Under the pieces are notes generated by a model. It made no database searches. It was not told where the DNA came from and worked only from the letters and a program-made list of their open reading frames with translations. From Candidatus Aenigmatarchaeota archaeon (GTDB lineage Archaea; Aenigmatarchaeota; Aenigmatarchaeia; QMZS01): a DNA stretch of 64,000 bases. The translations under genes were made by a program, and so were the position numbers. Positions 54,764 through 61,593 of the stretch are shown here, one piece after another. Positions within the stretch are counted from its first letter, which is position 1, and each line of letters begins with the position of its first letter. The stretch covers positions 15,277 to 79,276 of the forward strand of contig JAFGCN010000027.1 of assembly GCA_016932615.1 (NCBI GenBank), read 5' to 3'.

Positions 54764-55435
54764 ATGGGCACTGGACTTAGTAGCGTTAATTCTGGTCTTC
54801 CAGATAGGTTTCCAATCGGTCTTTGTTTGGACGAGAAAGGCCGGTATAGAGACACTTCTGTTTACTTGGAGATGCCAGAAACCCTTCTTCTTGGAAATGT
54901 TGAACAAATACGCTCAAGGAAGACTCGTGGTGGCAAAACTGGAACACAAATGTATCGGGATGCAGGTTCCTTGGAATTTAGCGCCTCCTCAGAACCGTAT
55001 AAAGAAGCTCATGATCTGCTATATTGTTATGCTGATCAACTGTCCCGTGAGATATTGACTCCGCCTAATGATCCACAGGAACACTTTCTTAAGGGGTATA
55101 TTCTTACAAATCTGGGCAAAAATCCTTCAGGCTCCAAAAGAAGGTCAGTTTTGGAGGTTCTTGAGAGAACTCCAAGAAGTACCAACCTGGAATTTTCCCT
55201 TGCGGTCTGCAATGCGTTTGAGGTATCTCCAGGAGTTTTTGTTGAGCTAGACACCCCTTATCCCAATTCAGTCAGGTATTTTGCTGAATTTCACATAGAA
55301 GCATCTCCTGGCGAGATAAGAGTTATCCCTGCAAGGATAAGGGATGCTGGTAGAGGAAGCGGAGAAAGCGAACTTGAATTTAATAAGGTAGTTTTAGCAC
55401 GATTTCTTTATGATTTTTCCAGGGCTCACCGGTAG
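54764..55435 (+). CDS. Hypothetical protein.
   Basis: 223-aa ORF, no family recognised. It forms a pair with the preceding ORF. Confidence 0.35.
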   Translation: MGTGLSSVNSGLPDRFPIGLCLDEKGRYRDTSVYLEMPETLLLGNVEQIRSRKTRGGKTGTQMYRDAGSLEFSASSEPYKEAHDLLYCYADQLSREILTPPNDPQEHFLKGYILTNLGKNPSGSKRRSVLEVLERTPRSTNLEFSLAVCNAFEVSPGVFVELDTPYPNSVRYFAEFHIEASPGEIRVIPARIRDAGRGSGESELEFNKVVLARFLYDFSRAHR

Positions 55436-55472
55436 ATCTGGCATTAATTGATTTAAATTCAAATAGAATTAC

Positions 55473-55623
55473 GCGGAGGTGGCAGAACAGCTATGCATCC
55501 GGCTGCAGTCCTACCCTTTCTTTGCAAAAGAAAGGCTGAGGTTCACCCAAAGAAAGCAGATTCCTGCTTCGCAGAAACAAAAGCGGTTACCGGACCAAGA
55601 GGGTGCGACTCCCTCCCTCCGCT
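55473..55623 (+). ncRNA. tRNA-like structured RNA locus. Acceptor-stem complements GCGGAGG/CCTCCGC and a T-arm-like hairpin enclose an approximately 75-nt insertion.
   Basis: 5' GCGGAGG-TG-GCAG...CTGC (D-stem-like) and 3' GAGGG-TGCGACT-CCCTC-CCTCCGC-T. The T-loop is non-canonical (G at position 55) and the D-loop is over-long, so this may be a degenerate or intron-containing tRNA. Confidence 0.3.
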
Positions 55624-55702
55624 GTCAGACCTTTTCTTTAGGAAAGAAAAGGGCCGACACCCCCAAAAGAACCCTATTCCTGCTTCGCAGGAATAACAGC
55701 GG
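55514..55702 (+). repeat. Two tandem copies (about 116-nt period) of a structured element. A third, diverged copy lies at about 51737-51806, inside the tRNA-like locus.
   Basis: Each unit has a T-rich/A-rich hairpin (CCTTTCTTT...AAAGAAAGG), CCCAAAGAA, and a second hairpin ATTCCTGC-TTC-GCAGGAAT. The copy at 51786-51802 reads ATTTCGC-TTC-GCGGAAT, with compensatory changes that keep the stem. Confidence 0.55.
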
Positions 55703-55733
55703 TCTGATAAGCGCAAGAGAAGCTATTGGCAGC

Positions 55734-56153
55734 TTAAGACACCTTTTTCCAAATAAGCCGTCCTTTTTGTTCGTGATCTATACCCTTGTTAACCCAAATG
55801 ACGCTTATATTTCCATTGGGCAGTATGTGCAAAGTATGTTCTCCCCAAGCGTTCAAATTTGAAGTAGGTCTCCAGTCATAAAATCCGGTAAGAACAGAAT
55901 TTCCAAGATATCTCAGGTGGCTTTCCCATTCAATCCCGTTACGTTCCCGACCTATTGCCTTAAAATCATTTCCGATTAAATGTACTACTCGTACCTTTCC
56001 ATTGTCGTGCACATAAGTACCAATAATATTTTTGAACTTTCTTTTTAGATAGCGTTTATCATAAAATTCACGCTTGAAGAGGACTATAACTGCTTCTGCA
56101 ATAAATGTGGCGATTATTCCAAGTAAGAATGCAATCGTAAAATCATTCTCCAT
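55734..56153 (-). CDS. Hypothetical membrane-anchored protein.
   Basis: N-terminal TM (FTIAFLLGIIATFIAEAVIVLF) and a 110-aa soluble domain. Confidence 0.4.
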   Translation of the reverse strand: MENDFTIAFLLGIIATFIAEAVIVLFKREFYDKRYLKRKFKNIIGTYVHDNGKVRVVHLIGNDFKAIGRERNGIEWESHLRYLGNSVLTGFYDWRPTSNLNAWGEHTLHILPNGNISVIWVNKGIDHEQKGRLIWKKVS

Positions 56154-56208: not shown

Positions 56209-57645
56209 CTAAATCATATCCTTAATCATCTCCCTTATCCTTCCCGGTGACGCATGACGCCCGGATTTCTTCATCACCTGCCCGACGAGGTAGTTGAATG
56301 CCTCTTCATGCCCGTTCTCGTAGTCCCGAACCGCCTTTGCGTTGCCCCGTATGACGTCCCGGACATACTTTTCGAGCTGCTCTTCTTCCAGGGGCTTGTC
56401 AAGCTTCAGGTCTCGCAGAACATGGTCCGGCTCCCTTACCTTCTGCTTTTTGACGGCGTCGTAAACCATCTCCCTGATGACAAGCTCGGCAACATCGTCC
56501 ATTATCTTGTAATCCTGGAGCAGGTCGAGAAGCCTCCTCAGGTGCCTTATCTCGATTCCGCTGTCCTTAAGCGAAATGTTGTGGTAGTTGAGGGTCTTTT
56601 TCACGTATTTTGCAAGTATTGTCGCGGCTGGCTTTTCGCTGTGGGTTTCGCAAAGGTACTCGAAGTAATTTGCCATTTCGGGCTCCGTAAGAATTGTGTC
56701 AATAATCTCCTCAGAAATCGTGCCCATTTTCAGGTATCTCTTTTTCTTCAGGTCAGGAAGCTCCGGGAGGTTTGACTGGACCTTGTTAAGAAGCTCGTCA
56801 TCAATTTCCATGATGGGCAGGTCCGGCTCAAATATATATCCGTAGTCTTCCTCCTCTTCCTTTGCCCTGGCGCTTGTGGTGGTCTTGGTCTTCTCATTCC
56901 AGAGCCGGGTTTCCCTCTTTACTTCCTGCACGTTTTTCTGGCGTATTATCTCAAAGCTCAGGCTCTTTTCGACGTCCTTTATGCCGGAGATATTTTTGAT
57001 TTCAACCCTTTCGCCATCTTTTTTCTGCTCGACCATCCTTCCGAGGAATGGGTCGAAAACGTTTTCAAATCGGGTGACGGAAATGTTTGCGTCCATCCTC
57101 ATGCATCCCTCTTTTCTAAAGTCAGTTACGTAAAGGTATTCAATAATCTGCTGGAGCTTTTGCAGGAAAAGCCGCGCTTCGGCGGGGCTTGACAGGTCCG
57201 GCTCGGTCACTATCTCGACCAGGGGAGTTCCGGAGCGGTTGTAATCAAGAAGGCAGCAGTCATCTTTTCTTACAATCCTTGCAGGGTCTTCCTCGAGGTG
57301 AATGCCCCGGAGCCGAATCTCTTTGTTGTTGATTTTAACTGACCCACCTCTTGCAAGCTTTACCTCCTGCTGGGTAATCTGGTAATCCTTGGACAAGTCC
57401 GGGTAAAAGTAAGTTTTCCTCGAGAACAGAAATCTCCTGTTGAGGTTGCAGCCGAGGGCAAGTGCTATCTTTATGCCCTGCTCTATCGCTTTTTCGTTTA
57501 GCCGCGGCTTGGTTCCCGGAAAGCCGAGGCACACATCGCATACATTTGTGTTTGGCTCTGCGTTTTCGTTTGCGCAGGAGCAGAATAATTTTGAGCGCGT
57601 GTCTAGCTGCACATGGACTTCAAGCCCTATTCTTATGCCTTCCAT
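56209..57645 (-). CDS. gatB: Aspartyl/glutamyl-tRNA amidotransferase subunit B.
   Basis: 478 aa. N-terminal IGLEVHVQL, the Zn/cradle domain CSCAN...CDVCLGFPG and a C-terminal YqeY-like tail. Confidence 0.85.
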   Translation of the reverse strand: MEGIRIGLEVHVQLDTRSKLFCSCANENAEPNTNVCDVCLGFPGTKPRLNEKAIEQGIKIALALGCNLNRRFLFSRKTYFYPDLSKDYQITQQEVKLARGGSVKINNKEIRLRGIHLEEDPARIVRKDDCCLLDYNRSGTPLVEIVTEPDLSSPAEARLFLQKLQQIIEYLYVTDFRKEGCMRMDANISVTRFENVFDPFLGRMVEQKKDGERVEIKNISGIKDVEKSLSFEIIRQKNVQEVKRETRLWNEKTKTTTSARAKEEEEDYGYIFEPDLPIMEIDDELLNKVQSNLPELPDLKKKRYLKMGTISEEIIDTILTEPEMANYFEYLCETHSEKPAATILAKYVKKTLNYHNISLKDSGIEIRHLRRLLDLLQDYKIMDDVAELVIREMVYDAVKKQKVREPDHVLRDLKLDKPLEEEQLEKYVRDVIRGNAKAVRDYENGHEEAFNYLVGQVMKKSGRHASPGRIREMIKDMI

Positions 57646-57718
57646 AAAATAACCTATAGATATTTCTTATCCCTTTTTCCAGGCACTGTCGGATTATAAA
57701 TTCTCGCCTATATTCTTT

Positions 57719-59821
57719 ATGGTCCATGCTGACCCTTACCTTTTTGGTTTCGTAATGATTACGCTTGCTGCCCTCGTAATTGGACTTATAATGGGATTTA
57801 TGCGCCAGCCCTCTGTAATTGCCTACCTGCTTGCCGGGGTTCTGGTTGGCCCATATGGGCTTAAGCTTATTTCTGAAGGGAGCATGATTTCCGGCCTGGG
57901 AAACCTCGGCGTTATGCTGCTGCTGTTTTTTGTAGGAGCAAGCATTTCCCTTTCGACGCTCGTGAAGCGCTGGAAGCTTGCGATTTTTGGAACCCTCATC
58001 CAAATTATTCTCAGTCTTGGCGTGGTTTTTCTTATAGGCCATATATTTTCCTGGCCTCTTGGGCAGATGGTTTTGATGGGCTTTGTGATAAGCCTGAGCA
58101 GCACTGCAGTAATCGTCAAGATTCTTGAGTCCAGAGAGGAGATTGGCACAAAGCTTGGGCAGGATGTGATTGGGATCCTTGTAATGCAGGACCTGGCAGT
58201 AATTCCAATGATAATGATTTTGTCAGCCCTGTCGGGTGAAGCGACAAACGTAACAGGGCTTCTGCTGAACCTTGCCGGAGGGATATTTGTAATTGTTCTT
58301 GTCCTGAGCATTGTCAGGAACGGATTTTTGAAGCTTCCATTTGGGAAAAGGATAGAATCGGACCCTGAACTTCAGGTTTTGGCAGCTCTTGCCATGTGCT
58401 TTGGAATTGCAGTTCTGAGCGAGTCATTTCAGCTCTCTGCAGCATTTGGCGCATTTATTGCAGGAATGTCCATTTCCTCAGTAAGGGAGATGAAATGGAT
58501 TACCCAAAACCTTCAGCCATTTAAGGTTCTTTTCATTGCGCTTTTTTTCATTTCAATTGGCATGATGGTTGACCTGGAATACCTAAGCGCCCACGCTTTT
58601 GAGCTTGGCCTGCTTCTGCTTGCCCTTTTCTTTGTCAACAGCATTCTGAATGCCTTTATCTTCAGGTGGAGCGGGGAATCCTGGAGAAACAGTCTTTATG
58701 GCGGCTCTTACCTGGCCCAGATTGGAGAGTTCAGCTTTGTGCTTATCGCAATGGGGCTTGGCCTGGGGCTTATTTCATCAAGCGCTTACCAGTTGACCCT
58801 GCAGCTGATTGCCCTTTCCCTTATAATAAGCCCGTTCTGGATAAGCTTTTTCCGCCAATTTGTGGACAAGTCCACTTTGATAAGGGAAGCGATTCATTCC
58901 GGAGAGGGCAGACGAGAGGGCATACAATTCATAAAGCACCTTGTCGATGCCAACAAGCTGCAGGTTATCGTTGACGAACAGAGGATGGAGCGGCGCGTCC
59001 GCCGGCTTCAAACCTGGGTTGACAAGCTCACGTTTACGAGAATTTTTGCACTGTGGTTCTTCGTAATATTTTCATTTGGCCTGATTTATTTCTATGGCCA
59101 GACTCCCGAAAACAGCCTTATCTACCAAAATGGTGGCTCGGTGAATAACCTGATGGATACAATCTACTTTAGTTTCATCTCAGCCACAACCACGGGCTAT
59201 GGAGACATTCTTCCTTTTGGGCTGTTCAAGATACTTGCCATTATTGAAGTTGTCTGCGGGTGGCTGCTTCTGGCTGCGGTAACAACACGGCTTATTTCCG
59301 TAAAGCAGGATATAATCATCGGAGAGCTTTATAAGGCATCGCTCAGAAGCGAGATTTCGGGCCTTAGGACGGCATTACGGCTTTTCAGGCAGAATATCGA
59401 TGACTTTATTATCCGGATGGAAGAAGGGGCGCTTAAGAAAAGGTCTCTTAATGACCTTTCGAGATATCTTGCTTCTTTCGAGGAGAACCTGCTAAGAGTC
59501 AAGCTCATAATTCCAAAAGATAATGAGGATGGGTTCAGGACAGCTCCCGAAGAGGAAGATTTGGAGATTCTGGTAAATAGCGCAATGAACTCTTTTGAAA
59601 AGCTCTTGGAGCTAATCAATACCAACCACCGCGAAACCCTTGATTGGAGAACTGAGTCGGCGATGAATCGCATTAAAGTTTCCGTTCAGATTGGAGAGGA
59701 CATATTCAAACTTGCAGACCGGTCCGGCTTTTTCAAGCCCGAATTTATGAAGGGATTAAATGAGCGGCGGGAAAGCATAATTTCTGAGATAAGGTCAAAA
59801 GTCGGGCATAGGCCAAAATAA
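57719..59821 (+). CDS. Fusion of a CPA2-type monovalent cation:proton antiporter domain (about 390 aa) with a two-TM potassium-channel pore module (TTTGYGD selectivity filter) and a C-terminal helical cytoplasmic domain.
   Basis: KefB/NapA-like TM core (YLLAGVLVGPYGL, IGEFSFVL). After a cytoplasmic linker come M1, a pore helix, SFISATTTGYGDILPFG and M2 (ILAIIEVVCGWLLLAAV). Confidence 0.7.
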   Translation: MVHADPYLFGFVMITLAALVIGLIMGFMRQPSVIAYLLAGVLVGPYGLKLISEGSMISGLGNLGVMLLLFFVGASISLSTLVKRWKLAIFGTLIQIILSLGVVFLIGHIFSWPLGQMVLMGFVISLSSTAVIVKILESREEIGTKLGQDVIGILVMQDLAVIPMIMILSALSGEATNVTGLLLNLAGGIFVIVLVLSIVRNGFLKLPFGKRIESDPELQVLAALAMCFGIAVLSESFQLSAAFGAFIAGMSISSVREMKWITQNLQPFKVLFIALFFISIGMMVDLEYLSAHAFELGLLLLALFFVNSILNAFIFRWSGESWRNSLYGGSYLAQIGEFSFVLIAMGLGLGLISSSAYQLTLQLIALSLIISPFWISFFRQFVDKSTLIREAIHSGEGRREGIQFIKHLVDANKLQVIVDEQRMERRVRRLQTWVDKLTFTRIFALWFFVIFSFGLIYFYGQTPENSLIYQNGGSVNNLMDTIYFSFISATTTGYGDILPFGLFKILAIIEVVCGWLLLAAVTTRLISVKQDIIIGELYKASLRSEISGLRTALRLFRQNIDDFIIRMEEGALKKRSLNDLSRYLASFEENLLRVKLIIPKDNEDGFRTAPEEEDLEILVNSAMNSFEKLLELINTNHRETLDWRTESAMNRIKVSVQIGEDIFKLADRSGFFKPEFMKGLNERRESIISEIRSKVGHRPK

Positions 59822-59925: not shown

Positions 59926-60609
59926 TTAGTAGTGGATTGGCTCTCCCCTTCGGATAACCATCATCTCGATCGATTTCTTGTCGAATTGCCCGAATTTCTT
60001 CTCTCCGGCCTCGATTGACGAAACGACGAGCTTTTTTGCCTGTTCTTCAGTCATATCGTCTTTGTAGTTGCTTTCCAGGTATTTCTGCGCATCTTCCTCC
60101 CCTCTTCCAAGGGCTTTTGCAAGCCACCGGTCAAGAGTTCCTGAAGGGTTTATTACGTAAAGTATCGATTCTTCGTTTACGCCACCCAGGAGAATTGCAA
60201 CCCCATAAGGCCTTGCTCCTGCAAACTGAGTGTAGAGCTGCATCCTGTCTGCGATTTTCTTTCCCAGGACAAAAACGTCAATCGGCTCCCCGAAGGTCAT
60301 CTTGTGTATCTGCGCGTGCACCCTTAAGATGTCAATTAGGGCCCTTGCGTCTCCAGTAAACCCACAGGCGGTAGCGCCCATGTGCTTGTCGATTGCGGCA
60401 ACTTTTGTCGCCTTTCCCTTCAGCTGGAGTTTTGTGTCTGGGGTATATGCGGCAAGGACTATTCCATCCTTGAATACCACTCCAACGCAGGTCTTTCCAA
60501 GCTTTACTGCCTGGAGAGCGTACTCTACCTGGTAAATCCTCCCTTCTGGTGAGAATACTACAATCGCCCTGTCATAACCCATTTGGCTAGGTAAGTCCAT
60601 ATCTGCCAT
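59926..60609 (-). CDS. psmA: Proteasome alpha subunit.
   Basis: YDRAIVVFSPEGRIYQVEYALQAV N-terminus, the alpha-specific helix H0 and Ntn-hydrolase fold motifs. Confidence 0.9.
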   Translation of the reverse strand: MADMDLPSQMGYDRAIVVFSPEGRIYQVEYALQAVKLGKTCVGVVFKDGIVLAAYTPDTKLQLKGKATKVAAIDKHMGATACGFTGDARALIDILRVHAQIHKMTFGEPIDVFVLGKKIADRMQLYTQFAGARPYGVAILLGGVNEESILYVINPSGTLDRWLAKALGRGEEDAQKYLESNYKDDMTEEQAKKLVVSSIEAGEKKFGQFDKKSIEMMVIRRGEPIHY

Positions 60610-60654: not shown

Positions 60655-61593
60655 TTAAGCCGATGCATAGTCGGCTGCTTTTGCGGTTTTGGTTCCTTGC
60701 GAGGGCTCGGGAGCATCTTCAGAAGGTCCCCCTTTCCACCTTCTTAGCTTATTCACTGCGGCCCGACCGAGGCCATAGGTAGTTCCCGCCACAGCAATTC
60801 CTGCAAGGAAAGAAATACCCAGCATAGCAATTACATAAGGATACATTTCCGGGCTGTAAACTAATTCTGCAGCTTCTGCTCCATTTTCTTCAAAAATACG
60901 GCTTAGGGCATTCAAGGGTTCAAAGACCAGTTCTCCGCCAGCTGCGCTGAAATCGCCTACATTAAAGGCGGGGACCCCTTCTGGAAGTTCCTTAAACATA
61001 TCCGTTGCTTTTACAACTTCTTCATCTACCGATGAAATGCGTAGCTGATAAACAGGAACCGCAACTAAAGAGCTTCCGGCAATAGCGAGCGGGAGGGACT
61101 TTCTTTTTTTAGCTTCATAAAGCAATTCAGCTCCCAGCGCCATGGATATGGCGTTCGGGGCTATAGCAACTAGCGCATCAGAAGGCCAGGGGCCAAAAGT
61201 GTCTGGATTTACATAACCCGCAATGTCTAATTGGGAGAGGTCTTTGGATTCAATCAGTGGGAAAATCTCACGAAGGAAGTCGCCCCCAAGAGCACTATCT
61301 ATCACTATCTCTTCGTTTGTGCCTCCGGTTGCAATATTAGTGGCTGCGTGAGTAAGTTCATGCGCTACAACATAGGGCTTTATTAAAGGGGTCCCCATTA
61401 GGGCATAAAAGGAAGCGGGAATCGCAGCGACATTAAGCGCCTTTTGAGTGGTTTTCCCGCCAGGCAGGCTTTCGGGGAATAGGTCATAGTAAGTCAGGTC
61501 CCGATACAAGTCTTTCCATCCATTAACGGGATTAAGCGCTCTGACAAGGCTTGAATCCTTGTAGAGATTTTCCGAGCCAGTTTCTTTAATCAT
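60655..61593 (-). CDS. Putative zinc metalloprotease with an HExxH motif and a C-terminal TM.
   Basis: VVAHELTHAATN contains HELTH. A hydrophobic helix sits near the C-terminus (YVIAMLGISFLAGIAVAGTTYGL). Confidence 0.45.
   Translation of the reverse strand: MIKETGSENLYKDSSLVRALNPVNGWKDLYRDLTYYDLFPESLPGGKTTQKALNVAAIPASFYALMGTPLIKPYVVAHELTHAATNIATGGTNEEIVIDSALGGDFLREIFPLIESKDLSQLDIAGYVNPDTFGPWPSDALVAIAPNAISMALGAELLYEAKKRKSLPLAIAGSSLVAVPVYQLRISSVDEEVVKATDMFKELPEGVPAFNVGDFSAAGGELVFEPLNALSRIFEENGAEAAELVYSPEMYPYVIAMLGISFLAGIAVAGTTYGLGRAAVNKLRRWKGGPSEDAPEPSQGTKTAKAADYASA

Follow-up and report, generated by a model that had tools for sequence, protein, structure and literature searches.

A Kef-like cation/proton exchanger and a complete potassium channel form one maintained gene in an uncultured DPANN archaeon

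The stretch of DNA analysed here (the window; 64,000 nucleotides of contig JAFGCN010000027.1 of a Candidatus Aenigmatarchaeota archaeon) was found to contain, at positions 57719-59821 of the forward strand, a gene in which a CPA2 cation/proton antiporter is followed by a two-transmembrane-helix (2-TM) potassium channel in the same polypeptide. In this uncultured DPANN archaeon the Kef-like exchanger and the complete K+ channel are one real, evolutionarily maintained gene. An identical protein is deposited at NCBI (MBN2095668.1) from a Candidatus Aenigmarchaeota metagenome-assembled genome (MAG), with 'cation:proton antiporter' as its sole annotation. The ATG at position 57719 is supported as the start codon because the N-terminus of the fused protein (MVHADPYL...) lines up with the N-termini of the homologues P0003 and P0329. 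The full-length protein was modelled with AlphaFold2 (AF2) from a 118-sequence alignment, with a mean predicted local distance difference test score (pLDDT) of 88.7, and the following features were assigned within the gene:

57719..59821, + strand: fused gene, 700 codons plus stop, ATG start, no stop inside the open reading frame (ORF)
57719..58897, + strand: CPA2 (Kef/NapA-fold) antiporter module, residues 1-393 (Pfam, KefC 8bxg, Foldseek, AF2)
58187..58192, + strand: 'QD' ion-binding motif Q157-D158, aligned with the KefC Q155-D156 K+ site
58898..59032, + strand: cytoplasmic linker, residues 394-438, with 10 Lys/Arg in 45 residues (pLDDT 46-75)
59033..59095, + strand: M1 outer helix, residues 439-459 (AF2)
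59150..59206, + strand: pore helix 478-490 and filter T490-T-T-G-Y-G-D496 (Pfam, AF2)
59225..59308, + strand: M2 inner helix, residues 503-530, with G514 (AF2)
59309..59818, + strand: cytoplasmic all-helical tail, residues 531-700, belonging to the stand-alone channel family

A Na_H_Exchanger domain (Pfam PF00999) was found in the antiporter module, covering residues 17-377 (E 5.3e-55; score 187.2 bits, cutoff 26.2), and the module's closest solved relative by sequence was KefC (8bxg; E 3e-32). In the AF2 model this part contained about 13 TM helices at a pLDDT of about 90, including two discontinuous helices (114-125/129-138 and 322-331/338-348), so that the NhaA/NapA fold, with 13 TM helices and two discontinuous crossing helices, was present; the same fold and the same two broken crossing helices are found in Kef-type CPA2 proteins (Escherichia coli KefC, 8BXG; plant KEA). 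KefC was also the top Foldseek match of the full-length model (E 3e-14, 392 columns), NapA was matched with a TM-score of 0.77-0.81, and structures of SLC9C1 ranked after these two with long alignments. The last CPA2 helix (354-393) was modelled with a length of 40 residues, reaching out into the cytoplasm and leading on to the helix that precedes M1 of the channel.

The residues S127, S128, Q157, D158, E337 and F338 correspond to residues of the KefC K+ site, L152 is also conserved, and the S127-S128-T129 break aligns with KefC, in which S125 and T127 are the break residues. KefC and the fused protein thus have the QD motif, the residues of the SST break and the E-F pair of TM12 in common, and S127, S128, Q157 and D158 were found to be invariant among 56 stand-alone homologues. 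The roles of the KefC K+-site residues have been described, with the QD motif taken to mark electroneutral K+/H+ exchange (PMC11150392). KefC S336 is replaced by Gly336 in the fused protein, and this residue was invariant in the 56 stand-alone homologues. The module falls in a very large stand-alone CPA2 family of about 385-413 residues without an RCK domain, and of the 74 CPA2 positions with at least 95% conservation among the stand-alone relatives, 72 were kept. Among NCBIfam models, the nearest to the N-terminal part were of the CPA2/Kef/YbaL/MagA type, all scoring below their curated cutoffs, and the best for the short CPA2 subfamily was 'MagA' (271 bits against a cutoff of 700). No TrkA_N or TrkA_C match was found in the fused protein by Pfam and the tail was all-helical in the AF2 model; the channel stands where Kef proteins carry their RCK/KTN regulatory domain. 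Evidence for a KefF/G partner of the fused protein was not found.

The linker was found to hold a basic helix (419-436) before M1, which is present in stand-alone channels too, and the fusion junction was placed at about residues 390-400. The channel module contained an Ion_trans_2 domain (Pfam PF07885) spanning residues 447-528 (E 1e-10; score 41.8 bits, cutoff 22.5), with the TTTGYGD codons at 59186-59206. The TxGYGD filter follows the pore helix and lies between two predicted TM helices, these being the only two after the linker. M1, the pore helix and M2 were modelled at a pLDDT above 90, and the model of the C-terminal part had a mean pLDDT of 83.5. The M2 helix continues unbroken into the cytoplasm through residue 569, followed by four further helices to residue 696. 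The module gave profile matches to the KvAP, KirBac3.1, KcsA and NaK pores, and its layout of M1, pore helix, TxGYGD and M2 is that of canonical 2-TM/P-loop channels (KcsA, KirBac3.1, the KvAP pore, the MthK pore), from which it differs in having no RCK, no Kir-type beta-sheet domain and no voltage sensor. No cNMP_binding domain was found by Pfam, and the Ion_trans match was confined to the pore region (profile positions 130-223).

Pfam and PDB sequence searches gave no match for the tail, nor was there a significant match to a PDB fold, and no beta-rich Rossmann domain was present in its AF2 model. Within the channel-family alignment of this region (59309-59818), S541 and R550 were invariant and L553, F556-R557-Q558, E568, R575 and E616 were at least 90% conserved. 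The helical tail of about 170 residues appears to be an uncharacterised cytoplasmic domain of the DPANN channel family. In the filter of the fused protein Thr occupies the x position of TxGYG in place of the usual Val or Ile, and Thr was found at this position (492) in 56 of 60 stand-alone channels. Of the channel positions at least 95% conserved in stand-alone relatives, 30 of 31 were kept in the fused protein. In KefC the RCK domain comes after the equivalent last helix, in the cytoplasm, and M1 of K+ channels starts there too; the CPA2 C-terminus and the channel N-terminus would accordingly both be cytoplasmic and the two modules topologically compatible.

An earlier note on this locus had described an antiporter core of about 390 residues, a cytoplasmic linker, a 2-TM channel with TTTGYGD between its helices, a helical tail of about 170 residues and the lack of RCK/KTN. 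This description was borne out by the Na_H_Exchanger match (17-377) with its KefC/NapA fold, by the linker at residues 394-438 of the AF2 model, by the Ion_trans_2 match (447-528) with M1, pore helix and M2 modelled, by the all-helical residues 531-700 and by the missing TrkA_N/TrkA_C match. The possibility raised there that the TTTGYGD segment is not flanked by TM helices did not hold, as M1 (439-459) and M2 (from 503) were found on its two sides in the AF2 model.

The fusion was found again outside the window. A complete orthologue of 710 residues (P0329) was present on a 15.4-kb contig (L086) from a metagenome independent of the window, and was aligned with the window protein at 68% identity over 701 columns with 2 gaps, collinear and with the junction at the identical place. 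A fragment on a 1.4-kb contig (P0002; L001) also spans the junction, and its 90%-identity cluster includes P0329. In all, the fusion was found on two more contigs, from the metagenomes JGI 3300009157 and 3300027722, at 64-75% amino acid identity to the window protein; an extra metagenome scan gained only duplicates of L086 and of a split locus described below. The fused gene was thus found to be one uninterrupted ORF with a collinear orthologue, and the doubt named in the earlier note, an assembly artefact joining two genes, did not hold. The following conserved neighbours were used as synteny anchors:

56209..57645, - strand: GatB, upstream of the fused gene; common to the stand-alone-channel loci
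59926..60609, - strand: proteasome alpha subunit, downstream of the fused gene; common to L084 (a stand-alone-channel locus) and L086

The fused gene of L086 was followed by proteasome alpha, rpS13 and rpS4, matching the synteny of the window. Nei-Gojobori counts were made by segment between the window and L086 fused genes, as proportions of synonymous (pS) and nonsynonymous (pN) differences. The synonymous sites were found to be saturated (pS 0.64-0.81), and pN was 0.17 in the CPA2 module, 0.23 in the linker, 0.05-0.18 in the pore and 0.17-0.38 in the tail. Purifying selection has preserved the fused gene intact in two lineages.

Secondary transporters and channels for one ion are normally separate proteins. 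A phmmer scan covered the complete set of 1.84 billion representatives, which stand for about 15 billion proteins, and among the matches listed both modules were matched only by the query and the P0002 cluster, which agrees with the view of the earlier note that the combination is unusual. The remaining best 150 matches spanned residues 1-390 or residues 396-696, and not both. Longer CPA2 relatives were found to bear TrkA_N/TrkA_C or unrelated domains, and literature searches returned no description of an antiporter-channel fusion architecture. This is a very rare architecture made of two ordinary modules, which stand adjacent or alone in close relatives.

The channel part was found to be a whole protein elsewhere. 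Residues 395-700 of the fused protein (306 residues) matched stand-alone Ion_trans_2 channels of 286-330 residues end to end; the closest were 58-59% identical at 96-98% coverage (E down to 1e-109), followed by more than 300 others at 33-46%. A scan of genome representatives gave 304 channel relatives, and the hosts of the stand-alone channels were Woesearchaeota, Nanoarchaeota, Aenigmatarchaeota and other DPANN archaea. These channels (P0121-P0181, annotated 'potassium channel family protein') are independent genes that share with the fused protein the helix before M1, the T-[TS]-T-G-[FY]-G-D filter, a KQD motif after M2 and the tail; the fused protein contains a whole antiporter in place of their first 8-12 residues.

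The separate state of both genes was found in a close relative. The locus L002 (and the identical L088) was found to contain the orthologous CPA2 gene with its stop, followed by a 37-nt spacer and a stand-alone channel on the same strand. In the DNA alignment both fused genes were without about 186 nt present in L002, and these correspond to a CPA2 tail of about 38 codons with its stop, followed by the spacer and the opening 8-12 codons of the channel. The fusion most likely originated by a deletion of about 186 nt between adjacent co-oriented genes for an RCK-less CPA2 protein and a 2-TM channel with the helical tail. Because the modules are autonomous elsewhere, and adjacent or channel-only in the nearest relatives, the fusion looks like a merger of operon partners; obligatory allosteric coupling is not needed as an explanation. 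The split CPA2 and channel ORFs (L002:3-1553; L088:2-1552) were also found to lie in the same frame with two in-frame TGA stops between them (…RKG*KMELFETKTN*LVGASYTSS…, asterisks marking the stops). This shared frame could have come about by chance (1 in 3) or be left over from a history of fusion and fission.

In the CPA2 tree the window and L086 were grouped with 100% bootstrap, followed by the addition of L002 with 98%, so that the channel-linked CPA2 proteins were monophyletic. In the channel tree and in the flanking housekeeping genes the fused L086 was placed beside the stand-alone L084, which is incongruent with the CPA2 tree. Along the channel the similarity was found to be mosaic: L086 resembled L084 in the linker and the tail, and resembled the window in the pore and M2. 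Residues 501-560 (pore/M2; 59225-59400) were 93% identical between the fused forms and 73% identical to the closest stand-alone channel, with a run of 18 informative sites. A recent transfer is excluded because the synonymous sites are saturated; the history of the locus is reticulate, and the mosaic could reflect either stand-alone and fused alleles that recombined long ago or a constraint specific to the fusion. A single clean evolutionary scenario was dropped in view of the incongruent CPA2 and channel trees and the mosaic channel similarity. In L086 three ORFs (680, 1139 and 96 residues) without Pfam match were found between GatB and the fused gene (L086:798-6712), unlike in the window, where GatB directly abuts the fused gene; these ORFs may be an inserted block.

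The explanation preferred here, to which a probability of about 55% was given, is that a deletion fused two neighbouring genes and that the product works as a co-assembled circuit of a K+ channel and a K+/H+ exchanger. Both modules look functional, judged from the family-invariant residues that they retain. The pore module would tetramerise like other P-loop channels and so bring four exchanger modules together, which could pair as two CPA dimers tethered by the flexible linkers of 45 residues. K+ would flow electrophoretically through the TxGYGD pore along the membrane potential, and the QD-type exchanger would work electroneutrally, trading K+ against H+ in the manner shown for KefC (PMC11150392). 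The 1:1 pair would then form a local K+ circuit that interconverts the membrane potential and the pH gradient, and this circuit would serve K+, pH and volume homeostasis. The fusion would be of benefit by ensuring that, in a reduced genome, the two activities are expressed together, at one place and at a fixed ratio; no new transport chemistry would be involved.

Pairs encoded by separate genes are known in the thylakoid (TPK3 and KEA3), in mitochondria (mitoK channels and the K+/H+ exchanger) and in alkaliphiles (the Na+/H+ antiporter and NaVBP). In such pairs an electrophoretic channel and an electroneutral exchanger in one membrane set the balance of membrane potential and pH gradient. The proposed likeness of the fused protein to the TPK3/KEA3-type pairs would be one of logic, with the difference that here both parts belong to one polypeptide at a fixed 1:1 ratio.

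A functional link between the two kinds of protein is also suggested by a second, independent adjacency, in which the CPA2 partner belongs to another subfamily. In the MAG of an unrelated DPANN archaeon (L030:4055-6801), a gene for a Kef-type Na_H_Exchanger+TrkA_N protein of 605 residues was found to end 68 nt upstream of a 286-residue member of the channel family on the same strand. The closest Woesearchaeota stand-alone CPA2 (P0005) sits in a compact ion-homeostasis cluster; there (L093:114-6170, also L094) its gene overlaps an MscS-like gene by 14 nt, with CorA downstream and TrkA and TrkH upstream. Against such a link, no K+ channel neighbour was found beside the nearest stand-alone CPA2 genes P0003, P0004 and P0005.

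Several findings weigh against the proposed circuit. The stand-alone channel was found with GatB divergently upstream and without a CPA2 gene in L003, L084 and L085, followed in L084 by proteasome alpha downstream of the channel, and the organism of L084 is very close to the fusion carrier L086 (PsmA 96% and GatB 91% identity). Because these three loci carry the channel alone in the GatB-flanked slot, and L084 stands so near to L086, the channel can do without the antiporter module, and selection on the fusion could be nearly neutral. In a survey of 80 genome loci of the channel, a CPA2 gene lay within 6 kb in only one; on the strength of the other 79, adjacency to CPA2 was dismissed as a trait of the family at large. 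On the side of the exchanger, the score against TIGR00932 (the CPA2 subfamily model of NCBIfam) was 188.4 bits, below the curated cutoff of 238.3, although the best PDB relatives remained the CPA2 members KefC and NapA. The TM11 lysine (KefC K307, NapA K305) was not found in the fused protein and Asn307 (58637-58639) occupies its place. In the TM3 'G-[LM]-E' motif the Glu, elsewhere at least 90% conserved, is replaced by Ser75 (57941-57943) in the window, L086 and P0003. Owing to these two replacements, the exchange properties may differ from those of KefC. K+ transport, the tetramer with its dimer of dimers and the K+ circuit are, moreover, what we infer. Finally, both modules running together unregulated would be a proton leak, and some reciprocal control is therefore to be expected.

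The same relatives bear on the view that the fusion is neutral, a chance in-frame deletion in a streamlined genome that left the modules independent with nothing gained, which was considered rather unlikely. The autonomy of both modules elsewhere, the variable presence of the CPA2 module among close relatives, the low-confidence and presumably flexible linker of the AF2 model and the restriction of the fusion to two lineages are consistent with it. The fused gene has, however, survived to synonymous saturation without a stop or frameshift; the linker itself shows a pN of 0.23 against a pS of 0.81, the position of the junction is conserved across the lineages, and the CPA2-channel adjacency of L030 arose independently.

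The earlier note had suggested that the antiporter might gate the channel, or that one of the two modules might have a regulatory role. A true allosteric chimera of this kind, in which the pore is gated by the elevator movement of the exchanger or by its ion/proton occupancy, or in which the RCK-less exchanger is under the control of the channel with its tail, is improbable. The modelled 354-393 helix that leads to the pre-M1 helix of the channel and the lack of the RCK gate used by Kef proteins are in keeping with such coupling, as is the rank of SLC9C1 after KefC and NapA in Foldseek; the 93% against 73% identity of residues 501-560 is suggestive, and other explanations for it exist. The fusion is found in only two lineages, with no co-variation or interface support; the linker between the modules has a pLDDT of 46-75, and the channel family operates without an exchanger in hundreds of genomes. 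The more detailed variant, with the signal passing through the long last CPA2 helix and the basic pre-M1 helix and with two exchanger dimers arranged round a tetrameric pore, is equally improbable.

To our knowledge, SLC9C1 (8OTX, 8PCZ) is the sole solved CPA exchanger covalently joined to a module derived from an ion channel. It is the sperm Na+/H+ exchanger, a eukaryotic and dimeric CPA1 protein with an S1-S4 voltage sensor and a CNBD and without a pore, and its channel-type voltage sensor controls the exchanger. The fused protein, in contrast, carries the pore itself and contains neither a voltage sensor nor a CNBD. If the allosteric chimera were true, a transporter domain would gate a K+ channel, which is the reverse of the arrangement in SLC9C1.

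Loss of transport in one module, which would now be a membrane anchor, an oligomerisation scaffold or a sensor, was considered very unlikely. The Asn in place of the KefC/NapA TM11 lysine, the Ser in place of the 'GLE' glutamate and the Thr in place of the usual Val or Ile of TxGYG would point that way; Asn307 was, however, found in 56 of 56 homologues of the short RCK-less CPA2 subfamily and Thr492 in the great majority of channels (56/60), so that neither is specific to the fusion, and 97-98% of the family-invariant positions were kept and pN was low in both modules. An artefact, whether an assembly chimera or a sequencing error joining two genes, could be thought of for a MAG whose close relative (L002/L088) has separate genes in the same frame, but was ruled out by the collinear orthologues with a shared junction on two more contigs from two other metagenomes (64-75% amino acid identity), because an assembly or sequencing error is not heritable over such divergence.

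The fused gene is a new domain architecture made from two known kinds of module and confined to two uncultured lineages. Its significance is limited by this confinement and by the dispensability of the antiporter half in close relatives. As a natural 1:1 chain it offers a test object for how a dimeric elevator transporter is combined with a tetrameric pore, and for whether anything is gained by physically coupling circuits of a K+ channel and a K+/H+ exchanger such as those postulated for thylakoids, mitochondria and alkaliphiles. It further suggests a possible regulatory partner for the short RCK-less CPA2 antiporters, and draws attention to a large uncharacterised family of DPANN K+ channels with a novel helical cytoplasmic domain.

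The neighbours of the fused gene in the window were found to be archaeal housekeeping genes, namely those of a GatA-like amidase, GatB, proteasome alpha, rpS13 and rpS4. No tRNA genes were detected across the 64-kb window. Two ORFs of 223 (+ strand) and 139 residues (- strand), both without Pfam match, were present upstream of GatB (54764-56153). A 312-residue ORF without Pfam match was found between proteasome alpha and rpS13 (60655-61593, - strand), and two ORFs of 87 residues occupy the corresponding position in L086. The fused gene and GatB are separated by the following region:

57646..57718, 73 nt: intergenic spacer, with GatB (-) and the fused gene (+) diverging from it

This region was found to contain A/T-rich, TATA-like stretches, for example ATTATAAA at 57695-57702, and is a candidate promoter region.

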